From a virus: a DNA stretch of 30,882 bases. The notes beneath the pieces were generated by a model. It was not told the DNA's origin and searched no databases. It saw only the letters and a list, made by a program, of their open reading frames with translations. Where the stretch lies: IMG/VR virus record IMGVR_UViG_3300045988_046657. One strand, 5' to 3'. Made by a program: the position numbers and the translations under genes. Shown here in pieces: positions 18,062-28,333 of the stretch. Positions within the stretch are counted from its first letter, which is position 1. Every line of letters begins with the position of its first letter.

Positions 18062-19543
18062 TTACTGAGATTCCGGCGCATAGTAGTAATAAACTTTCAG
18101 CTCATCTTTTGAGCGATCATATATAATCTTTTCTATCACGCTCTTTAGGATTTCATTTTTGGTTACGGAGTCCACAGAGTCAGATTCTATGATTTCATAT
18201 ACATTTCTTACTTTTTCCAACATAGCGAGTTTAGAAGTATCAATAGTAGGTTCTGCTGGTTTTATGTCTGCAAGCTGCTTTTCCAGCATCTCTTTTTCTT
18301 CCTGAACCATGCGCTTATTTTCTTTATATTCATCAAGTGTATCTACTCCATTACGGTACGCTTCTCTGATGCGGTCAAATTTTTCCACATTCTTTCTTAA
18401 CTGCTCCGTAATAATGACGTTTAGATCCACAGAAGTTTCCTGCACCGGTTCAACGTGCCTGTAGATGATGTTGCCAGTGTCCAGAACTTCTTTTATGGAT
18501 GCAAGTACCGCCGGTTCCAGCTTCAAGGAGCTTACAGATGTCTTGGCAAGGCATTTTCCTTTTGAGTACCCATAGCATGTAAAATAGCAGTATGATTTTT
18601 GGTTATTTACTGTTTTGGCAATCATGGTTCTTCCGCATACAGGGCACTTCATAAGACCTGAAAGCCAATGTTTGTATGTAGAGGAAGGTCTGGTGCCGGA
18701 TGGTTTGTATTCGCTTTTGTAACGGATCTGCGCTTTGTCAAATAATTCTTTAGATATAATAGCAGGTTGCTGACCATCAGAGACAATCCATTCTGATTCC
18801 GGTCGGATTTCGTTTGTTTCGCTTACGGTACGGTTCCATCGGATCATACCGCAGTAAGTTGGGTTCTGTAAGATGTATTCAATAGATCTGCGTTCAAACG
18901 GTTTGTTGTGAGATGTTTTAAACCCACACAAATTTAGATAGCGTGCTATGTCGAATATTCCGGTATGTTCATTTACATATTTATCAAATATGATTTTAAT
19001 TATTTCAGCTTCTTCCGGCACAATAACAGGAGGTTTTCCGCGCTCTTGGATTTTATATCCAAGCGGAGGACGCGCCTGATAGCCGCCGCGTTTTGCCTTT
19101 TCTGTCATACCTCGTGTCACTTCGCCGGAAAGACGGACAGAATAGTACTCGTCCATCCATTCAATGATGCGCTCGATCAAAGAGCCGAACGGACCGTCTA
19201 CAAGCGGCTCGGAAACGCTCAAGACTTCTACGTTGTGCTTCTTCTTTAAAAGAGATTTATAAACAATAGACTCTTCCTGATTTCTTGCAAATCGACTGAA
19301 TTTCCACACGATGATACAATCTACAGGATGTTTGTCTGATTTGGCAAGAGCGATCATCTTTTGAAACTCCGGACGCTTGTCAGCTTTCCGACCGGAAATA
19401 CCGAGCTCATAAAAGATTTGCAGGACAATCATATCGTTCTTTTTAGCAAAGTCTTTCAACAGTTTTGCCTGCGAATCAGGAGAGAGTTCTTCTTGGCCGG
19501 ATGTGGATACCCTAACATAACCATAACAATATTTAGTTTTCAT
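18062..19543 (-). CDS. int: large serine recombinase (phage integrase)
   Basis: N-terminal resolvase catalytic domain YGYVRVSTSGQ...SGRKADKRPEF; recombinase domain; C-terminal zinc ribbon CPVCGRTM...CYFTCYGYSKGKC and coiled-coil; RBS GAGGTG. Confidence 0.9.
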   Translation of the reverse strand: MKTKYCYGYVRVSTSGQEELSPDSQAKLLKDFAKKNDMIVLQIFYELGISGRKADKRPEFQKMIALAKSDKHPVDCIIVWKFSRFARNQEESIVYKSLLKKKHNVEVLSVSEPLVDGPFGSLIERIIEWMDEYYSVRLSGEVTRGMTEKAKRGGYQARPPLGYKIQERGKPPVIVPEEAEIIKIIFDKYVNEHTGIFDIARYLNLCGFKTSHNKPFERRSIEYILQNPTYCGMIRWNRTVSETNEIRPESEWIVSDGQQPAIISKELFDKAQIRYKSEYKPSGTRPSSTYKHWLSGLMKCPVCGRTMIAKTVNNQKSYCYFTCYGYSKGKCLAKTSVSSLKLEPAVLASIKEVLDTGNIIYRHVEPVQETSVDLNVIITEQLRKNVEKFDRIREAYRNGVDTLDEYKENKRMVQEEKEMLEKQLADIKPAEPTIDTSKLAMLEKVRNVYEIIESDSVDSVTKNEILKSVIEKIIYDRSKDELKVYYYYAPESQ

Positions 19544-21326: not shown

Positions 21327-21355
21327 ATTGACAAGTTCTGATATCCGCACTATAA
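21327..21355 (+). promoter_or_regulatory. consensus early promoter (TTGACA, 17-bp spacer, TATAAT) driving cro rightward
   Basis: TTGACA at 21327..21332 and TATAAT at 21350..21355. Confidence 0.6.
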
Positions 21356-21434
21356 TAAAGCTACAAAGTTCGGAAATCAAAACAGAATTGTAACTTAATT
21401 CTTTGTCAATGTATCTGGTAAATATATTGTATCT

Positions 21435-21485: not shown

Positions 21486-21671
21486 ATGTATGAAAAATAT
21501 GTAGAAATCAGGGATTCAAGAAAACTGACAGATTATCGTGTGTCAGAAGATACTGGAATAACTAAATCTACATTTTCTGATTGGAAGTCAGGAAGAAGTA
21601 AGCCAAAGATGGAAAAGCTCAAAATCCTCGCCGACTACTTCGGAGTATCTATTGAGTACTTCCTAGAGTAG
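21486..21671 (+). CDS. Cro-like XRE-family HTH regulator
   Basis: GITKSTFSDWKSGRSKPKMEKLKILADYFGVSIEY is an XRE HTH; 61 aa; divergent from the repressor; RBS GAGGTG. Confidence 0.7.
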   Translation: MYEKYVEIRDSRKLTDYRVSEDTGITKSTFSDWKSGRSKPKMEKLKILADYFGVSIEYFLE

Positions 21672-22082: not shown

Positions 22083-22224
22083 ATAGTATCTCTCCTTTTC
22101 ATAATACTCGGCATGGCAGTGCCTGTATTAACAGTATAGGAGAGGTGGAGGAGAATAGCAAGTAGCATGCAGATCAGCTGTCAATAAAACGGACAGAAGA
22201 GAAAGGAGAGTGATTAAGTTGGCT

Positions 22225-22386
22225 ATGGAGATGCTTGATAGAGAATTCCGAGAAGACCAGAGCGCGATATTAAGCAATGAGATTTCGCGGTGTATGATTC
22301 AGAACAATATGACATTGGAGAATCTGGACGAGGCGTGCGAGATTGTACGTGAGGTGTTTAGAAAGAACGCCACAATGAAAGGCTGA
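22225..22386 (+). CDS. hypothetical 54-aa ORF
   Basis: RBS AGGAGAG; may start at the in-frame TTG at 22219. Confidence 0.25.
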   Translation: MEMLDREFREDQSAILSNEISRCMIQNNMTLENLDEACEIVREVFRKNATMKG

Positions 22387-22405
22387 CGAAAAGCCAGCCC
22401 CATTA

Positions 22406-22651
22406 TTATCCCTTGTGGCATTCACGGCAACAATGATAACATCCGTCAAACTTTTTATCGGGATAAGCAATCTGCGCAGCAATTATAGCTGCCTGACAAG
22501 AACTGTATCTTCCAATATACTGTCTGTTAAGTTCGGATGGAAGATAATAGCAGTTTTCTGTATGTACTTCATAATTGCCGTTAATATCTGGATAGATATA
22601 AAAATAGTAATTTTGCATCATGATGGAACTCCTTTCGTAGTACTCGGACAT
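22406..22651 (-). CDS. antisense small Cys/aromatic-rich protein B (C-terminal CYHCCRECH zinc-knuckle-like)
   Basis: 81 aa; conserved 5' leader shared with gene A; RBS AAAGGAG. Confidence 0.5.
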   Translation of the reverse strand: MSEYYERSSIMMQNYYFYIYPDINGNYEVHTENCYYLPSELNRQYIGRYSSCQAAIIAAQIAYPDKKFDGCYHCCRECHKG

Positions 22652-22880: not shown

Positions 22881-22902
22881 GCGGTAGAAAGGAAGGACAA
22901 GC

Positions 22903-23121
22903 ATGGAAGAGATTAAATTACCGACAGTGCCGGAGCTGGAGCTGATCCCGATCGAGCGGAGAAATTTTCCGGAAGAGGATCACAAGCAGGAGAAAATTCA
23001 GCACAAAAGAAAAGAAAGAGACAGCGCTGCAAGAGGTCTGATCGCAGTAACGGTTGCCAGCATGATGTTAAACGCGGTGATGGCTATGATCATTTACATC
23101 TTGCAGGCAGGACCAATCTAA
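22903..23121 (+). CDS. small C-terminally membrane-anchored protein
   Basis: C-terminal TM helix GLIAVTVASMMLNAVMAMIIYIL; its 3' end is the start of direct repeat A. Confidence 0.4.
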   Translation: MEEIKLPTVPELELIPIERRNFPEEDHKQEKIQHKRKERDSAARGLIAVTVASMMLNAVMAMIIYILQAGPI

Positions 23122-23392
23122 GGAGGTGAACAAAGAAATGGATGTAAAGGTAAAGAAAGATGCCGAAGAAGAAATGAACTGCATCTTAGATCTACTTGAA
23201 GAATGGTGTCTGAAATACGATCAGGATTATGCAAACGCGGTTGTACTTGTAAAACATGATCAGATCACATCGTGGGGAAGTATAGGCAATCACGAAGATT
23301 TTGACGTTTACAGAACAAAAGAGCGCCCATAAATGAGGCGGCAACCTCTAGGACGCATAGATAAATAATCAACATTATTGTAACAGAAAGGA
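23063..23392. repeat. direct repeat copy A (about 330 bp) carrying the 68-aa gene and a conserved downstream leader
   Basis: About 88 percent identical to 24286..24617 by eye. Confidence 0.85.
23126..23332 (+). CDS. 68-aa hypothetical protein (paralogue 1)
   Basis: MNKEMDVKVKKDAEEEMNCILDLLEEWCLKYDQDY...; RBS AAGGAGGTGAAC. Confidence 0.5.
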   Translation: MNKEMDVKVKKDAEEEMNCILDLLEEWCLKYDQDYANAVVLVKHDQITSWGSIGNHEDFDVYRTKERP

Positions 23393-23400
23393 CGAGAAAA

Positions 23401-24270
23401 GTGAAGAAATTTGAATTAACAAATGAATTTGTAACAAATATGTTCGGGACAAAGCTGTTCCGCATCCGTGCCCTTGTTGAGTTCGGCGATGTGGAAGCCG
23501 GAGAACTTGGCGGGTATGTGGAGAAGGAATCAAACCTTGGTCATGACGACAATGCGTGGGTGTACGACAATGCGCGGGTGTACGGCAATGCGTGGGTTTC
23601 CGGCAATGCACAGGTTTCCGGCAATGCGCGGGTGTACGGCAATGCGTGGGTGTACGGAGATGCACAGGTTTCCGGCAATGCGCGGGTGTACGACAATGCG
23701 CGGGTGTACGGCAATGCGCGGGTGTACGGAGATGCGCTGGTGTACGACAATGCGCGGGTGTACGGCAATGCGTGGGTGTACGGAGATGCACAGGTTTCCG
23801 GCGATGCGCGGGTTTCCGGCAATGCGCGGGTGTACGGCAATGCGCGGGTGTACGGAGATGCACAGGTTTCCGGTGATGCGCGGGTGTACGACAATGCGCG
23901 GGTGTGCGGCAATGCGCTGGTGCGCGGCAATGCGTGGGTGTACGGCAATGCGTGGGTGTACGGAGATGCACAGGTTTCCGGCGATGCGCGGGTTTCCGGC
24001 AATGCGCGGGTGTACGGCAATGGGGACTATGCATACGCTCACGGTTTCGGATCTGTCAACCGTACAACGACCTTCTTCCGTCTCAAAGATGGCGGCGTGG
24101 GTGTGCGGTGCGGATGCTTCTACGGGACGCTTGCACAGTTCCGGGATAAGATCCGGGAGACACACGGAGAAACAAAGAAGGCACAAGAATACCTGATGCT
24201 GGCAGACCTGATGGAACTCAGATTCGAAGAGGATGAAAACGAAGTAGGAAATAGAAAATACGTTGAGTAA
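23401..24270 (+). CDS. tandem hexapeptide-repeat protein (predicted left-handed beta-helix), 26 perfect N/D-A-x-V-Y/S-G/D repeats between unique N- and C-terminal domains
   Basis: GTG start with RBS AAAGGACGAG; the + frame is the only one with non-repetitive termini and operon context; the repeat block is open in all six frames. Confidence 0.6.
   Translation: MKKFELTNEFVTNMFGTKLFRIRALVEFGDVEAGELGGYVEKESNLGHDDNAWVYDNARVYGNAWVSGNAQVSGNARVYGNAWVYGDAQVSGNARVYDNARVYGNARVYGDALVYDNARVYGNAWVYGDAQVSGDARVSGNARVYGNARVYGDAQVSGDARVYDNARVCGNALVRGNAWVYGNAWVYGDAQVSGDARVSGNARVYGNGDYAYAHGFGSVNRTTTFFRLKDGGVGVRCGCFYGTLAQFRDKIRETHGETKKAQEYLMLADLMELRFEEDENEVGNRKYVE
23551..24018 (+). repeat. 26 near-identical tandem 18-bp repeats (consensus AATGCGCGGGTGTACGGC)
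   Basis: Directly visible; encodes NARVYG and variants (NAWVYG, DAQVSG, DARVSG, NALVRG ...). Confidence 0.95.
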
Positions 24271-24285
24271 TGAAAGAAGATAGTG

Positions 24286-24617
24286 TGATGTTAAATGCGG
24301 TGATGGCTGTGATTATTTACATCCTGCAGGCAGGACCGATCTAAGGAGGTGAACAAAGAAATGAACGAAGAAATAAAGAAAGACGCCGAAGAAGAAATGA
24401 ACTGCATCTTAGAACTGCTCGAAGGATGGTGCCTGAAATACGATCAGGATTATACAAACGCAGTTGTACTTACAAAAAACGATCAGATCACATCGTGGGG
24501 AAGCATAGGCAATCGCGAAGACTTTGACGTTTACAGAACAAAAAAGCGCCCATAAGAGGCGGCAACCTCTAGGACGCATAGATAAACAACCAAGATTATT
24601 GTACGGGAAAGAAAGGA
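24286..24617. repeat. direct repeat copy B (about 330 bp), including a truncated remnant of the membrane-protein 3' end (MLNAVMAVIIYILQAGPI)
   Basis: Alignment with 23063..23392. Confidence 0.85.
24349..24555 (+). CDS. 68-aa hypothetical protein (paralogue 2)
   Basis: MNKEMNEEIKKDAEEEMNCILELLEGWCLKYDQDY...; about 80 percent identical to paralogue 1. Confidence 0.5.
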   Translation: MNKEMNEEIKKDAEEEMNCILELLEGWCLKYDQDYTNAVVLTKNDQITSWGSIGNREDFDVYRTKKRP

Positions 24618-24627
24618 ATTTGTAAAG

Positions 24628-24873
24628 ATGATTAAATGCAGTAAAGGCAATGTGGAAATAAAAGGAAATTTAATATTATTAGAAGCAGAAACAGTCATGA
24701 TATTAAGAGGAATAAGAAACATCCTCGAAGAAGAGTACGGAAAAAAACACGCAGAAAAGTCAATGCAAAAAATAGTTAAAACATCCACAATGACGCAAGA
24801 AGAAATAGAAGAGGAAATAAAAAAATCAGCACAAGAAATAGCGAGAGAAGCAGCGAAACACCTCATGAAATGA
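24628..24873 (+). CDS. hypothetical 81-aa Lys/Glu-rich protein (second cassette cargo)
   Basis: Follows repeat-B leader; RBS GAAAGGAA. Confidence 0.4.
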   Translation: MIKCSKGNVEIKGNLILLEAETVMILRGIRNILEEEYGKKHAEKSMQKIVKTSTMTQEEIEEEIKKSAQEIAREAAKHLMK

Positions 24874-25010
24874 AAGAAGAAGTTATTTTGTGGATCATCC
24901 GCTGGGGAGATCCGTACGCATTAGAGTGCAAGACAATGACCAGATCGGAAGTCGAAGCGTATGCGCGCGAAAAGCAAAAAAAGCGCGGCGGTACATATGT
25001 AATCAATTAA
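24870..25010 (+). CDS. hypothetical 46-aa ORF
   Basis: ATGA overlap with the preceding ORF. Confidence 0.2.
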   Translation: MKEEVILWIIRWGDPYALECKTMTRSEVEAYAREKQKKRGGTYVIN

Positions 25011-25013
25011 AAA

Positions 25014-25040
25014 AAGCGCATCACAGCAACTGATGCGCTT
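25014..25040 (-). terminator. rho-independent terminator oriented for the minus strand (10-bp stem, T-run on minus strand)
   Basis: AAGCGCATCA-CAGCAAC-TGATGCGCTT preceded on the + strand by an A-tract. Confidence 0.45.
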
Positions 25041-25051
25041 AAAAGATGGCG

Positions 25052-25101
25052 TTCCCGCCTCTTGTTAGGACAAATATATTGTATCAAATAAGAGGCGGGA
25101 A
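25052..25101. other. 12-bp inverted repeat with 26-nt AT-rich loop; candidate rolling-circle double-strand origin
   Basis: TTCCCGCCTCTT-(gttaggacaaatatattgtatcaaat)-AAGAGGCGGGAA, about 70 bp upstream of the HUH Rep gene and flanked by terminators. Confidence 0.35.
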
Positions 25102-25106
25102 GTCAA

Positions 25107-25128
25107 GCGATACACGCGGGGACTCCCG
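25107..25128 (+). terminator. short GC hairpin with T-tail (+ strand)
   Basis: GCGGG-GACT-CCCGC followed by TTTT. Confidence 0.35.
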
Positions 25129-25172
25129 CTTTTAAACCTCGATAAAGATATTAAAGTTAGGACAGATAAAAG

Positions 25173-25934
25173 ATGGCAACACGGAGAAAAACGTACAAAT
25201 TACGGGGCGGAGACGTCTACGACGTAGAGGAATATCCAGACGGAAGATATGGAGCAAAAGGAAAGGCACGGCAAAAGAAAAAGAAACCGACGCCGGAACA
25301 GATGGCGGCAGTCAACCAAGCCAACCGAGCGAAGATATGCAGACGATTACTGATCGAATATTTTGATGCAGGAGACTACTTTGTAACATACACCTACAAA
25401 GTCGAGCAAAGACCGAAAGACATGACAGTGGCACTAAAAGACTTACAAAAAGCACTCCGAAAGCTCCGTCCGAAATATAAAAAGGCAAACACTCCGTTTT
25501 ACTGGATCAGAAACATAGAGCGGGGCACAAAGGGTGCATGGCACATCCATCTAGTCATTAAAAAAACATCAGGGGCGGCAGAATGGATCGAAGATGCATG
25601 GGAACACGGAGCAATCTATATTACGCAGATCAAAAAAAGCCGGTTTTACGATGAGGATTTTACAAAACTGGCAAACTATATGACAAAAAACGAAAAAACA
25701 AGAGAAAAACGATCGGACGGAAGCAAAGGAAAACCGCGACTAAAAGAAGCAAGCTACAACCATGCGAAAAATATGCCGTTACCCGAACCGAAATCCCAAA
25801 AACTTGTACGCTGGCAAAAAGAAGTAAAACCCAAAAAAGGCTATTACATCGCAAACAGTTACGAGGGGATCAACCCGGCTACGGGGATGAGATACCGCAG
25901 ATACACACTGATCAGAATCCACAGGAGGATTTAA
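25173..25934 (+). CDS. rep: HUH-superfamily rolling-circle replication initiator (Rep)
   Basis: Motif I FVTYTYK, motif II (HUH) AWHIHLVIKK and motif III YMTKNEK (Y-x-x-K), in canonical order and spacing; very basic N-terminus. Confidence 0.6.
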   Translation: MATRRKTYKLRGGDVYDVEEYPDGRYGAKGKARQKKKKPTPEQMAAVNQANRAKICRRLLIEYFDAGDYFVTYTYKVEQRPKDMTVALKDLQKALRKLRPKYKKANTPFYWIRNIERGTKGAWHIHLVIKKTSGAAEWIEDAWEHGAIYITQIKKSRFYDEDFTKLANYMTKNEKTREKRSDGSKGKPRLKEASYNHAKNMPLPEPKSQKLVRWQKEVKPKKGYYIANSYEGINPATGMRYRRYTLIRIHRRI

Positions 25935-25935
25935 A

Positions 25936-26361
25936 ATGAAAACAGTAAATATCTACATAGAAACCACCATAAAATCCCCCATTGTAAAAGATGGGAAATA
26001 CGCATCCGCCCTAGTATTTACTAGGTCAAACGGAGAAGAAGCATACCGGGTCATGAGTGGCGAAGAGTGCGAATCTACTTACAACAGATTGACGCTGATC
26101 GCAATCATAAAATCATTACAAAAATTAAAAGAGCAGTGTCATGTTGTAATTCACACTGATAACGCTTATATCAAAAATATTTCAGAACAAGGAGCGCCGG
26201 AGAAGTGGCGGCGATCCGAGTGGAAAAAAGCCACAGGCGCGGAAGTCCAAAATAAAGAATTATGGAAAATGTACCTTGAGGAAGCGGAGAAACACGAAAC
26301 GGAATTTCGCTTTTGCGCCAGCAATGATTATCAGGGATTGCTAAGAGAAGAACTAACATAA
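25936..26361 (+). CDS. RNase H-like protein with non-canonical active-site residues
   Basis: Aligns by eye along its length with E. coli RNase HI (VNIYIETT/VEIFTDGS; STYNRLTLIAIIKSL/TTNNRMELMAAIVAL; HTDNAYI/STDSQYV; WRRSEWKK/WKKRGWK); D10 is Glu and E48 is Thr. Confidence 0.55.
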   Translation: MKTVNIYIETTIKSPIVKDGKYASALVFTRSNGEEAYRVMSGEECESTYNRLTLIAIIKSLQKLKEQCHVVIHTDNAYIKNISEQGAPEKWRRSEWKKATGAEVQNKELWKMYLEEAEKHETEFRFCASNDYQGLLREELT

Positions 26362-26371
26362 GGAGGACACC

Positions 26372-26632
26372 ATGAGAATTACAAAAGAAGCAAGATGCGC
26401 GAAAAACGCAAGGGAATACATCGGCAACCGCCCAAGACTCGTTGAAGGAAAGATATATACGTTGATTTTCCGACAGCAGCCGGAAAGAAGCGAAAAACAC
26501 ACTGCCATCAAGAAACGGATGCGCTTTTTAAAAGCGTTTCCACACCACGCACTTTTTGAAAACCCTTACGGGATCAAAAGATCGTTTACCTGGTGGGAAG
26601 TGGAAAAATTACTGAAAGGAGAGCAGATATGA
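26372..26632 (+). CDS. hypothetical basic protein
   Basis: 86-aa ORF; RBS AAGGAGGACACC. Confidence 0.35.
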   Translation: MRITKEARCAKNAREYIGNRPRLVEGKIYTLIFRQQPERSEKHTAIKKRMRFLKAFPHHALFENPYGIKRSFTWWEVEKLLKGEQI

Positions 26633-27978
26633 TACAAGATATTGCAATCGAACAGTTAGACATACACCCGCAGAACGTGCGGAAGGTATACACCGACATT
26701 GACGAGCTGGCGGAAAGCATAAAAGCTCGTGGCGTAATGCAAAATTTGACTGTAGTACCAAACCCGGACAAAAAAGACCACTATCTTGTAGTGATCGGAA
26801 ACCGAAGACTGACGGCAGCGAGAAAAGCGGGATTGAAAACAATGCCCTGTTCCGTTGTGGAAATGACGGAAAAAGAGCAAATATCAACGATGTTGTTGGA
26901 AAACATGCAGCGCAGCGATCTATCAGTAAGCGAGCAAGCACAAGGATTCCAGCTCATGTTGGATTTGGGAGAAACAGAAACAACAATCGCGGAAAAGACC
27001 GGATTTAGCAGAAGTACAGTACGACATAGGTTAAATCTTGCAAAACTGGATCAAGAAACACTTACGAGGCGCGAAGAAAATAAGGACTTCCAACTCACAT
27101 TAACGGACCTTTACGAGCTGGAGAAGGTACAAGACATCAAAAAAAGGAATGAAATCCTTAAGACTGCAGTATCGTCACGCGAAATCGCATGGAAAGCAAA
27201 ACAGGCCGTGAAAGAAGAAAAAATAAAGAAAAACGCTCAAATAGTGTTTGAAATACTGGAAGAAAAAGGAGTAAAAGCCGCGCCGAAAAGAGCGAAAGAA
27301 GAAAGATGGACCGGAAAATGGAAAGAGATAACAAATATTGATCTATCACAGTGGGAGGATCAAACAAAAATCGATCTGCAAGACACAAAAGATCAGCTCT
27401 ATTATTATCAATACTACGATAGGATCTATGTAGTAAAAAAAGTAATACAAAAAGAGCGGGAAAAAACGGAACAGGAAAAGAAAACGGAGAAAATCAAGGA
27501 AAACAAAAGAAAAATAACGGAAATCCTGAAAAGGATGAGAAGGGAAAGGGACGATTTTATTAAAGAACTTGTGTCGGGAAAAATCACAATACCGAAAGAA
27601 GTTGATGTAAAAGAAACAGGCTGGAAGATCATGATAAACCGGATAACGGACGGCGGAAGCGTAGCACACATGAACGCGGTGTATGGATTTTACGGGATCG
27701 AAAACGCGTACGAAGCGAAAGAAGAGGAAAAAGAACGGATCGAAAAAGAATTTGCAGAAATAAGCCAAGAAAAGCAAATGCTGATCCTCTTGACCCGGAC
27801 GGCAGAGCCGTACGAAGCAACTGACTATTACGGACACTACAAAAAAGGGATGAAATGCCTAAGAGACTTCTATAGATTACTTCAGCAGATGGGGTTCTCA
27901 TTTCGATCACTGGAAGAACTAAAGATCCTAAACGGGACTCATGAGTTATACACACAGGAGACGGAAGATGAGCATTGA
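26629..27978 (+). CDS. ParB/Srx N-terminal-domain protein with long charged coiled-coil C-terminus
   Basis: LVVIGNRRLTAARKAGL is a ParB box-II-like arginine motif; start ATG at 26629 (RBS AAAGGAGAG) inside the longer track ORF. Confidence 0.6.
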   Translation: MIQDIAIEQLDIHPQNVRKVYTDIDELAESIKARGVMQNLTVVPNPDKKDHYLVVIGNRRLTAARKAGLKTMPCSVVEMTEKEQISTMLLENMQRSDLSVSEQAQGFQLMLDLGETETTIAEKTGFSRSTVRHRLNLAKLDQETLTRREENKDFQLTLTDLYELEKVQDIKKRNEILKTAVSSREIAWKAKQAVKEEKIKKNAQIVFEILEEKGVKAAPKRAKEERWTGKWKEITNIDLSQWEDQTKIDLQDTKDQLYYYQYYDRIYVVKKVIQKEREKTEQEKKTEKIKENKRKITEILKRMRRERDDFIKELVSGKITIPKEVDVKETGWKIMINRITDGGSVAHMNAVYGFYGIENAYEAKEEEKERIEKEFAEISQEKQMLILLTRTAEPYEATDYYGHYKKGMKCLRDFYRLLQQMGFSFRSLEELKILNGTHELYTQETEDEH

Positions 27979-28333
27979 CTATTCGGACATGGCTTTCCCG
28001 AAGCCGAGAAAGAAGAAAAAACGGAAAATCCACAAAAAAAGCATTTTAAACAGTCAAAAGGGCATTTGCTACTTATGCGCCCGGTTAAACGGCGACTATT
28101 CCGTAAAGCAGACGGAAGAGCATCATATCCTGTTCGGGGCAGGACAAAGAGCGATATCTGAAGAAAACGGGTTAAAAGTAGACCTATGCATTGAGCATCA
28201 TCGAACGGGGCAGCAGGCAGTACACAACAGCCGAAAAACAAGGGAGCTGCTCTGTAAAATCGCACAAACAGAGTTTGAAAAGGTTCACACCCGAAAAGAA
28301 TGGGAACAGATCGCAAGGAAGAACTACCTCTAG
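27968..28333 (+). CDS. HNH-like Cys/His-cluster nuclease-like protein
   Basis: CYLCAR...EEHHILFGAGQR...LCIEHHR; start ATG at 27968 (RBS GGAGACGGAAG). Confidence 0.4.
   Translation: MSIDYSDMAFPKPRKKKKRKIHKKSILNSQKGICYLCARLNGDYSVKQTEEHHILFGAGQRAISEENGLKVDLCIEHHRTGQQAVHNSRKTRELLCKIAQTEFEKVHTRKEWEQIARKNYL

Follow-up and report, generated by a model that had tools for sequence, protein, structure and literature searches.

The window, by which we mean the whole stretch of DNA analysed here (30,882 nucleotides (nt) of the virus record IMGVR_UViG_3300045988_046657), belongs to a temperate siphovirus-like phage of a gut Firmicute. It contains two direct repeats, copy A (23063-23416) and copy B (24286-24637), which flank a gene for a left-handed beta-helix protein, Hex, and each of which includes a conserved leader of about 100 bp, hereafter called the element. 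The repeats look like two alleles of one block that were joined once and have recombined since, and the element carries on its minus strand promoter-like hexamers followed by a covarying hairpin and a U-tract. From these features of its sequence, the leader is probably the gene for a cis-antisense RNA of about 55 nt, encoded on the minus strand inside the duplicated, recombining block.

Gene organization of the repeat locus

The two-copy locus sits in a gut prophage, in the early rightward operon between the immunity region, represented by a Cro-like gene, and the replication genes. A repeat search of the window aligned the two copies in two blocks, the first of 270 nt with 90% identity (23063-23332 and 24286-24555) and the second, past a 2-nt indel, of 82 nt with 78% identity (23335-23416 and 24556-24637), and the start-to-start spacing of these blocks is 1223 and 1221 nt, respectively. 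The leader 14-mer GAGGCGGCARCCTC occurs exactly twice in the window, compared with 0.11 occurrences expected. The order within each copy is the same: the terminal 18 codons of a gene for a small membrane protein, a small open reading frame (ORF) termed s64, and the conserved leader.

A preliminary description of this DNA had reported direct repeats of about 330 bp that open inside the last 18 codons of the membrane-protein gene, with a truncated remnant of that gene before copy B, and had placed Hex after copy A and an 81-residue gene after copy B. This description of the repeats is correct in all essentials. The ends of the repeats were extended to 23416 and 24637, the remnant MLNAVMAVIIYILQAGPI was located at 24288-24344, and the two genes following the copies were found at 23401-24270 and 24628-24873. 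The same description gave each repeat an ORF of 68 residues; both ORFs exist (23126-23332 and 24349-24555), but the likely start lies 12 nt inward and gives a product of 64 residues.

The intact membrane-protein gene, TM72 (22903..23121, plus strand), encodes a protein of 72 residues with a C-terminal transmembrane helix and matches phrog_22934 (E value 8e-48), a PHROG family of unknown function. Its remnant before copy B (24288..24344, plus strand) retains 18 codons in frame and has an ATG; 6 of its 57 positions differ from copy A, and five of these differences are synonymous.

The s64 gene, an acidic ORFan, is present as s64A (23138..23332, plus strand; 68 residues if read from the GTG at 23126) and as a second allele, s64B (24361..24555, plus strand), with 83% amino-acid identity between the products. 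The ATG codons at 23138 and 24361, which have AGGAGG 11 nt upstream, are the likely starts, and most of the database homologs are annotated as 64 residues long. The ratio of nonsynonymous to synonymous substitution rates (dN/dS) is 0.23 between the A and B alleles and 0.24 over 18 alleles; these values indicate that s64 is a real gene, and both copies are under purifying selection. Its distribution is narrow: only 56 close clusters were found among 5.8 billion proteins, a profile search of 1.84 billion representatives yielded 18 close clusters and no remote homologs, a tblastn search of 50,697 phage records gave no match, and neither Pfam nor PHROG contained a match. The AlphaFold2 model consists of a single long helix (residues 3-47) with a low-confidence C-terminus (mean predicted local distance difference test score, 72.6; predicted template modeling score, 0.40) and has too few features for a fold comparison to be meaningful.

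The cargo between the repeats, Hex (23401..24270, plus strand), encodes a YdcK-type left-handed beta-helix protein of 289 residues. It matches PF18836 in 11 stretches (E value 5e-45), with the YdcK beta-solenoid repeats present, as well as the PDB entries 2f9c/2pig of YdcK (E value 6e-23), and is assigned to two PHROG families, phrog_7964 and phrog_5070, both of unknown function. The core of the gene is composed of 18-nt tandem repeats (23475-24094). The number of these repeats is very variable among near-identical backbones (loci L003-L075; L with a number designates an individual locus of the comparison below), and the length of the tblastn match to Hex ranges from 468 to 1011 nt in complete loci. 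The beta-helix length expands and contracts rapidly. At least three alternative C-termini were observed, ending in EDENEVGNRKYVE, IRFKN, and LRFEK.

Copy B is followed by g81 (24628..24873, plus strand), an 81-residue gene that is 100% conserved in most relatives and gave no significant family match in Pfam, PHROG, or PADLOC, and then by the 46-residue gene g46 (24870..25010, plus strand), the start of which matches a relic behind Hex that is described below. No informative Pfam or PHROG function match was obtained for s64, TM72, g81, or g46.

Locus architectures in related phages

Comparison with related phage genomes was based on 73 IMG/VR loci, mostly from human-gut samples, which were collected in a scan with s64 and mapped by tblastn; they show alternative cargo and copy number. 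The window form, TM72-s64-Hex-TM72'-s64-g81-g46-Rep (type 1), was found in about 20 loci. Nineteen loci have a single copy, TM72-s64-Hex-g81 (type 2), seven have TM72-s64-g81 without Hex (type 3), and about seven have s64-Hex followed by other genes (type 4). About 20 further contigs end within the region, as expected if the repeats break assemblies.

The variation is concentrated at the repeats. The backbone at 25000-28000 is about 99.5% identical among the loci, compared with 78-94% at 22900-24700. In a tree of the backbone, the three main architectures are interspersed at essentially zero distance, and all three were found again on a second, different downstream backbone. The leader stands before Hex, g81, a 119-residue gene, or a 77-residue gene in different relatives, and the latter two genes head differing replication and recombination modules. 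The idea of a swap hotspot, raised in the preliminary description, is therefore supported by relatives that vary in the number of repeat copies, in the presence of Hex, and in the gene after the leader (at least four), and we regard the locus as a hotspot of modular swapping. The same description foresaw that recombination between A and B would excise or exchange the cargo; the single-copy form without Hex expected of excision is type 3, represented by seven contigs.

The two-copy arrangement was also considered as a possible assembly chimera. This possibility was rejected because the same junction is present in 21 sequences, that is, the window and 20 contigs of other samples.

A number of contigs end in s64, in the leader, or in the first Hex repeats (L007, L015, L026, L029, L038, L055, L058, L059, L062, L064, L066, L070, L074, and L075). 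The direct repeat and the 18-nt tandem repeats of Hex systematically break short-read assemblies at this locus, and in practical terms many metagenomic assemblies are broken here.

Origin and recombination of the second copy

The junction GAGTAATGAAAGAAGATAGTGTGATGTTAAATGC behind Hex is identical in all of the 21 two-copy sequences, which indicates that the duplication arose once. The junction contains a relic (24270..24285) in which ATGAAAGAAGA, resembling the start of g46, is followed by TAGTG. The fact that the 11 nt behind the Hex stop codon (ATGAAAGAAGA) match the g46 start in the repeat search suggests that the relic is the scar of the illegitimate join that made copy B. Another scar with the same ATGAAAGAAGA start is present in L004, L014, and L021.

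The divergence between copies A and B is about 10% and affects mainly synonymous sites, the TM72 remnant included. This pattern suggests two alleles from different phages that had diverged while the genes were still intact and were joined afterwards, rather than copies that diverged in place. Three left breakpoints of the second copy were distinguished: at TM72 codon 55 in the window type; at s64 codon 56, after the relic ATGAAAGAAGAACTCTGTAAAAG, in L004, L014, and L021; and at s64 codon 61 in L019, where homology restarts at AAAAGAGCGCCC behind an unrelated 94-residue gene. The whole leader is retained at all three independent breakpoints.

Exchange between the copies is evident from the 40 sites that distinguish A from B. 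A-type tracts of varied length occur in the copy-2 units of L025, L028, L017, L013, L011, and L057, the single-copy alleles are A/B patchworks, and the leaders before g81 form a graded series of A-to-B switch points. In a four-gamete test of 42 unique units, 797 of the 1891 informative site pairs failed, giving a minimum number of recombination events (Rm) of at least 18 within about 350 nt. The three differing left breakpoints point to illegitimate and homologous recombination rather than site-specific excision.

We are confident of this picture of duplication followed by recombination. In the proposed course of events, an illegitimate join would have set the TM72'-s64-element-g81 segment of a relative behind Hex, once; later homologous recombination and gene conversion, both between the copies and with single-copy relatives, would have yielded the variants that lack Hex, lack the second copy, or carry other cargo. 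The element is the piece kept at every junction and, since it is shared by otherwise different phages, probably acts as a homology patch for module exchange among them.

The L019 locus, which is of the two-copy type, offers a further observation. At positions 2436-2720 of this locus, the unrelated 94-residue gene (MEMKLGKTKLKRML...) occupies the place of the second s64, while its neighbors, the TM72 remnant to the left and the element to the right, are unchanged. In this respect, s64 itself acts as a replaceable cassette.

Structure and strand of the element

Of the matches between a covariance model of the element (R1) and the window, exactly two are strong, and both lie on the minus strand: copy A at 23305..23408 (97.2 bits, E value 5e-14) and copy B at 24528..24629 (96.3 bits, E value 7e-14). 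Relatives contain one or two copies. The element is about 100 bp in size and lies between the upstream stop codon and the next start codon. In copy A, the putative promoter (-35 TTCACT at 23405-23400 and -10 TACAAT at 23382-23377; predicted start near 23370) is followed by a two-tier hairpin at 23356-23323 with the loop UUGCCG and by a U-tract at 23322-23315. A scan flagged both promoter-like and terminator-like sites in this copy. The predicted RNA of about 55 nt (about 23370 to 23315) would overlap the s64A stop codon. Copy B has the corresponding hexamers TTTACA (24626-24621) and TACAAT (24603-24598), matching the consensus at 10 of 12 positions, with a predicted start near 24591, a hairpin at 24577-24546, and a U-tract at 24545-24538; a scan detected a terminator-like site here, and the predicted RNA would extend to about 24538.

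The composite of a sigma-70-like promoter and a stem-loop was examined in an alignment of 19 diverse sequences of the minus strand. The -35 hexamer occurs as TTGACT, TTGACG, TTTACA, or TTCACT, whereas the -10 hexamer TAnAAT is invariant in all 19. A conserved TG is found 6-7 nt downstream of the -10 hexamer, and about 15-20 variable nucleotides then lead to the hairpin of 5+5 bp in two tiers, with a loop that is mostly UUGCCG, and to the U-tract. The promoter matches 9-11 of the 12 consensus positions. The -35 hexamer falls into the gap that separates the Shine-Dalgarno sequence of the downstream gene from its start codon, and the U-tract overlaps the stop codon of the upstream gene, which is s64 or, in distant phages, a membrane-protein gene. 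Among 32 sequences, the spacer is 17 nt in all 29 that have an intact 5' end, and the mean promoter score is 9.7 of 12 on the minus strand compared with 5.7 on the plus strand and 6.7 in shuffles.

The hairpin is supported by covariation. RNAalifold showed compensatory double changes in 6 of the 10 pairs, and 97.4% of the cells are paired, compared with 36-54% in slid controls. There are 31 double-change cells, and none of 500 shuffles reached these values. The paired cells are also informative about the strand: 26 cells that form G.U on the minus strand become A.C on the plus strand, whereas only two behave in the opposite way, so that 24 cells net are lost and pairing falls to 84.7% when the plus strand is read. 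The plus-strand reading places an A.C mismatch in the middle of the outer stem in both window copies. In addition, six or seven of the 8 nt after the stem are T on the minus strand in all 19 sequences, compared with zero to four on the plus strand. The preliminary description had noted a conserved leader with a small GAGG/CCTC hairpin on the plus strand; the conservation holds, but the mini-hairpin is better read as the minus-strand promoter, two-tier hairpin, and U-tract. We consider it highly probable that the element contains a strand-specific, terminator-type hairpin.

The alternative that has to be taken most seriously is that the hairpin works on the plus strand in the early mRNA, for example as a nut- or put-like antitermination site, an element that governs stability or RNase III processing, or a site bound by a phage protein, with the minus-strand promoter-like hexamers being incidental. 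The element does lie inside a rightward early operon, where lambdoid phages place their nut sites; its loop, CGGCAA on the plus strand, is strongly conserved; stem covariation alone does not choose a strand; and part of the -35 motif recurs at other gene starts. The loss of pairing on the plus strand, the T-rich tail confined to the minus strand, and the invariant -10 hexamer at its exact 17-nt spacing from the -35 hexamer nevertheless make this alternative unlikely. A plus-strand promoter or terminator in the leader was rejected, since the scans detected none and the pairing and the T-rich tail favor the minus strand.

Elements homologous to those of the window were found in distant phages lacking s64, including the Ruminococcus gnavus phage phiRM10 (MT980841, at about 24800-24895) and MT838860, where they sit between a small membrane-protein gene and Hex. 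Both stems are altered yet complementary in these phages, and the loop is conserved. When Hex homologs were retrieved independently of the leader, about 15 of 60 loci carried further element variants. A pattern scan of the whole collection gave mostly chance matches, with 6 of the 65 loci screened (80 listed) passing the covariance model. Conservation of the element with compensatory changes extends to phages whose flanking genes are only 64-75% identical or are unrelated. In 11 of 12 distant loci, the gene ending exactly at the U-tract encodes a membrane protein of 62-113 residues with a C-terminal hydrophobic helix; these proteins are tail-anchored and belong to at least four unrelated sequence types. 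A search of Rfam 15 with the window region and four distant element copies gave no match at an E value of 1 or below.

The last five s64 codons (TKERP or TKKRP; 23315-23332 and 24538-24555) coincide with the A-run of the element and the 5' arm of its outer stem, and in L105 and L139 another upstream ORF, ending in KKRAPS, likewise ends inside the element. The ends of the upstream ORFs appear to be overprinted on the terminator of the element.

Pairing of the element loop with the Hex repeats was also considered. There are 14 copies of CGGCAA, which is complementary to the loop, in the window Hex (23583-24015) and 9 in that of the type 2 member L047. The hexamer is missing from Hex of ten element-carrying phages outside the window family, and the loop variants do not follow their own Hex genes. 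Targeting of the Hex repeats by the loop was therefore rejected as a codon-level coincidence (TAC GGC AAT).

The proposed antisense RNA and its alternatives

We propose that the repeats are two alleles of one block comprising the 3' end of the membrane-protein gene, s64, and a regulatory element of about 100 bp, and that the element would form, on the minus strand, a compact transcription unit with a sigma-A-type promoter, a hairpin, and a U-tract. The resulting RNA would be complementary to the mRNA between the cistrons and over the last codons of the upstream gene, and pairing with the early mRNA there could modulate the flanking genes, as OOP does for cII, in an RNase III-dependent manner, and SR6 for yonT/yoyJ. 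Judging from the conserved signals, expression of a small RNA from the element is somewhat favored, and a specific regulatory role of this RNA is possible, though we lean toward doubting it.

Several points weigh against the proposal. The promoter and the terminator are predictions from sequence. Motifs like the -35 hexamer (GTCAA or TGTAAAG before ATG) are also found at other gene starts in these phages, so that conservation of the -35 hexamer may partly reflect the context of translation initiation and is weaker evidence than that of the -10 hexamer. Folding of the single sequences gave modest z-scores (-1.3 and -2.1), and the predicted RNA has a variable 5' tail in which no conserved trans-seed is evident. 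The presence of s64 between the membrane-protein gene and the element in the window family blurs a simple toxin/antitoxin reading. As for the origin of the locus, the donor of the junction relic GAAGATAGTGTG was not found outside the two-copy junction, and the forms without Hex may be either deletions or the ancestral state.

The geometry of the distant loci invites a second alternative, in which the tail-anchored membrane protein is the toxin (or a holin-like or exclusion factor) of a type I toxin-antitoxin-like system, the convergent small RNA is its antitoxin, and the duplication merely adds a second antitoxin gene. Type I systems with 3' overlap are known from Firmicute prophages, including yonT/SR6 (PMC5848175), bsrG/SR4 (PMC3834814), and those reviewed for Clostridia (PMC6563280), and in these prophage systems a convergent small RNA comes after the gene for a small membrane protein, as would the predicted RNA of the element; the exact ending of a membrane-protein gene at the U-tract in nearly all of the distant loci, across unrelated protein types, would fit this pattern. 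Against it, s64 separates TM72 from the element in the window family, and copy B keeps only 18 TM72 codons. Moreover, the predicted overlap is confined to the stop-codon region and the U-tract and is far shorter than in the known systems, and, unlike most type I toxins, the proteins have a tail anchor and a long charged N-terminus. We regard this alternative as quite unlikely.

Neutral local duplication, in which the second copy is a harmless accident and the leader is ordinary intergenic sequence conserved only by recency, would account for the single origin of the junction and would agree with the many relatives that manage with one copy or without Hex and with the lack of a known function for s64, Hex, and g81. 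We consider it improbable. The conservation of the element, with compensatory changes, amid diverged or unrelated flanks largely refutes this explanation for the element itself; the three independent breakpoints keep the full element, both s64 copies are under purifying selection, and the mostly synonymous divergence between A and B points to alleles that were brought together.

An integron-like site-specific cassette system for anti-defence or moron genes, with the repeats as the sites of a dedicated recombinase, is very improbable in spite of the variable cargo after the leader and the position in an accessory early region. The only recombinase identified among the ORFs scanned is a large serine integrase (18062-19543, minus strand) 4 kb away, and the analysis revealed neither a dedicated cassette recombinase nor an att-like site. 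The copy number per genome is only two, the proteins gave no matches to defence models, and the varying breakpoints, with crossovers scattered over the whole 350 nt, are a hallmark of homologous and illegitimate recombination. For the moron or anti-defence cassette array suggested in the preliminary description, the PADLOC, Pfam, and PHROG searches likewise gave no functional support. The PADLOC search of eight early-region proteins covered defence models and gave no matches; this result bears less strictly on anti-defence functions.

Comparison with known systems

The closest functional analogs of the proposed antisense RNA are OOP of phage lambda and SR6 of SPbeta. The OOP transcript starts at pO, where gene O begins, runs leftward to tO, and has a 52-nt overlap with the 3' end of cII (PMC5869508). 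At the level of sequence features, the element, like OOP, would specify a short leftward RNA opposite to the rightward early transcription of a temperate phage, at a site flanked by the immunity and replication regions, with a promoter at the 5' end of the downstream gene, an intrinsic terminator hairpin, and an overlap with the 3' end of the upstream gene. On the other hand, there is no sequence or structural homology between the two, the element having no Rfam match; the predicted RNA is about 55 nt compared with 77 nt and overlaps only the last few upstream codons; and the upstream gene encodes a membrane protein or s64, whereas that of OOP encodes the regulator cII.

SR6 of SPbeta is a 100-nt antisense RNA encoded between two cistrons of a polycistronic prophage mRNA (PMC5848175), and the element likewise lies between cistrons. 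It differs from the type I systems in its minimal overlap, in the longer, tail-anchored membrane proteins, and in the intervening s64 of the window family.

In its behavior as an exchange point, the element recalls the promoter-early stem-loops (PeSLs), the mediators of modular shuffling in T4-type phages (Arbiol et al. 2010, PMC2839356; Comeau et al. 2014, PMC4122927). Both are small composites of a promoter and a stem-loop located between a stop codon and the next Shine-Dalgarno sequence, are repeated in a region of accessory genes, and are common to otherwise unrelated sequences. Both are points of homologous exchange at which small genes of unknown function are inserted, deleted, or replaced, and indels between close relatives are bounded by the motif. 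In PeSLs, however, the promoter and terminator are oriented along the genes, whereas those of the element are on the opposite strand and would give a short antisense RNA instead of driving the cargo. PeSLs, which number in the dozens per genome and are clustered in hyperplastic regions, belong to lytic myoviruses that infect Gram-negative bacteria, in contrast to the one or two elements per genome in temperate gut Firmicute phages, and in the window a protein-coding gene forms part of the repeat.

The mosaic junctions, or boundary sequences, of temperate phages are short conserved intergenic sequences that join alternative gene modules. The element is similar in that alternative modules are joined at a short conserved intergenic sequence in different relatives. 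It differs in having a covarying structure and a promoter of its own and in occurring twice in one genome, so that intramolecular exchange is possible.

As a tentative wider proposal, the element may represent an undescribed family of phage antisense RNAs that combines cis regulation of an early operon, in the manner of OOP or a type I antitoxin, with a portable homology patch for early and replication modules. The range of such a family would be diverse temperate phages of gut Lachnospiraceae-type hosts, and its fixed triad would be a tail-anchored membrane-protein gene, the antisense RNA, and a YdcK-like beta-helix gene. It would be a reverse-oriented counterpart of the PeSLs of T4, and the two-copy form of the window could then be an intermediate caught in the process. 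Gut temperate phages are highly mosaic, and their exchange sequences are rarely defined. Here, one locus displays the full natural series of one copy, two copies, deletion, conversion, and cargo replacement, and the exchange junction is pinned to an element of about 100 bp with its own conserved structure. If the antisense RNA is indeed expressed, it would constitute a new RNA family in the control of Firmicute phage early genes, would join regulation and recombination in one small unit, and would provide a handle on the tail-anchored membrane proteins and the YdcK-like beta-helix proteins, two widespread groups that lack a known function.

Other features of the window

Family searches of the ORFs identified an SPP1-type portal and an amidase endolysin among the window genes, together with the Cro-like helix-turn-helix gene at 21486-21671. 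A promoter scan found a perfect rightward promoter, TTGACA-17-TATAAT, with 12 of 12 consensus positions at 21328-21356 on the plus strand. Downstream of the repeat region, Pfam and PHROG searches identified genes for a rolling-circle-type Rep, RNase H, and ParB. The nearest cultured relatives of single modules are Ruminococcus gnavus phages. Among 185,579 species-representative genomes, the sole match was L076 (NZ_JANGAL010000171.1, 210 bp), a contig labelled Veillonella parvula DFI.7.83 that holds the TM72-remnant/s64B junction; this match is probably due to cross-contamination.

A Cys-rich ORF of 81 residues (..CYHCCRECHKG) at 22406-22651 on the minus strand, opposite to the early operon, gave no family match, and its segment (about 22200-22600) was seen in only about 19 related loci. 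This ORF is possibly a moron.

A third leftward promoter-terminator pair was found at 24998-25109 on the minus strand, immediately before Rep, where it overlaps g46 at its 3' end. It consists of TTGACT-17-TACAAT with an extended -10 TG (25106-25078) and a terminator with a 10-bp stem (25040-25014) and a U7 tail. The predicted RNA is about 65 nt, and the position is even more OOP-like than that of the element copies. The pair matches the covariance model of the element weakly (25 bits, E value 0.03). A 10-bp inverted repeat, CCCGCCTCTT (25054-25063) and AAGAGGCGGG (25090-25099), flanks the -10 hexamer of this pair and could be part of the Rep origin.

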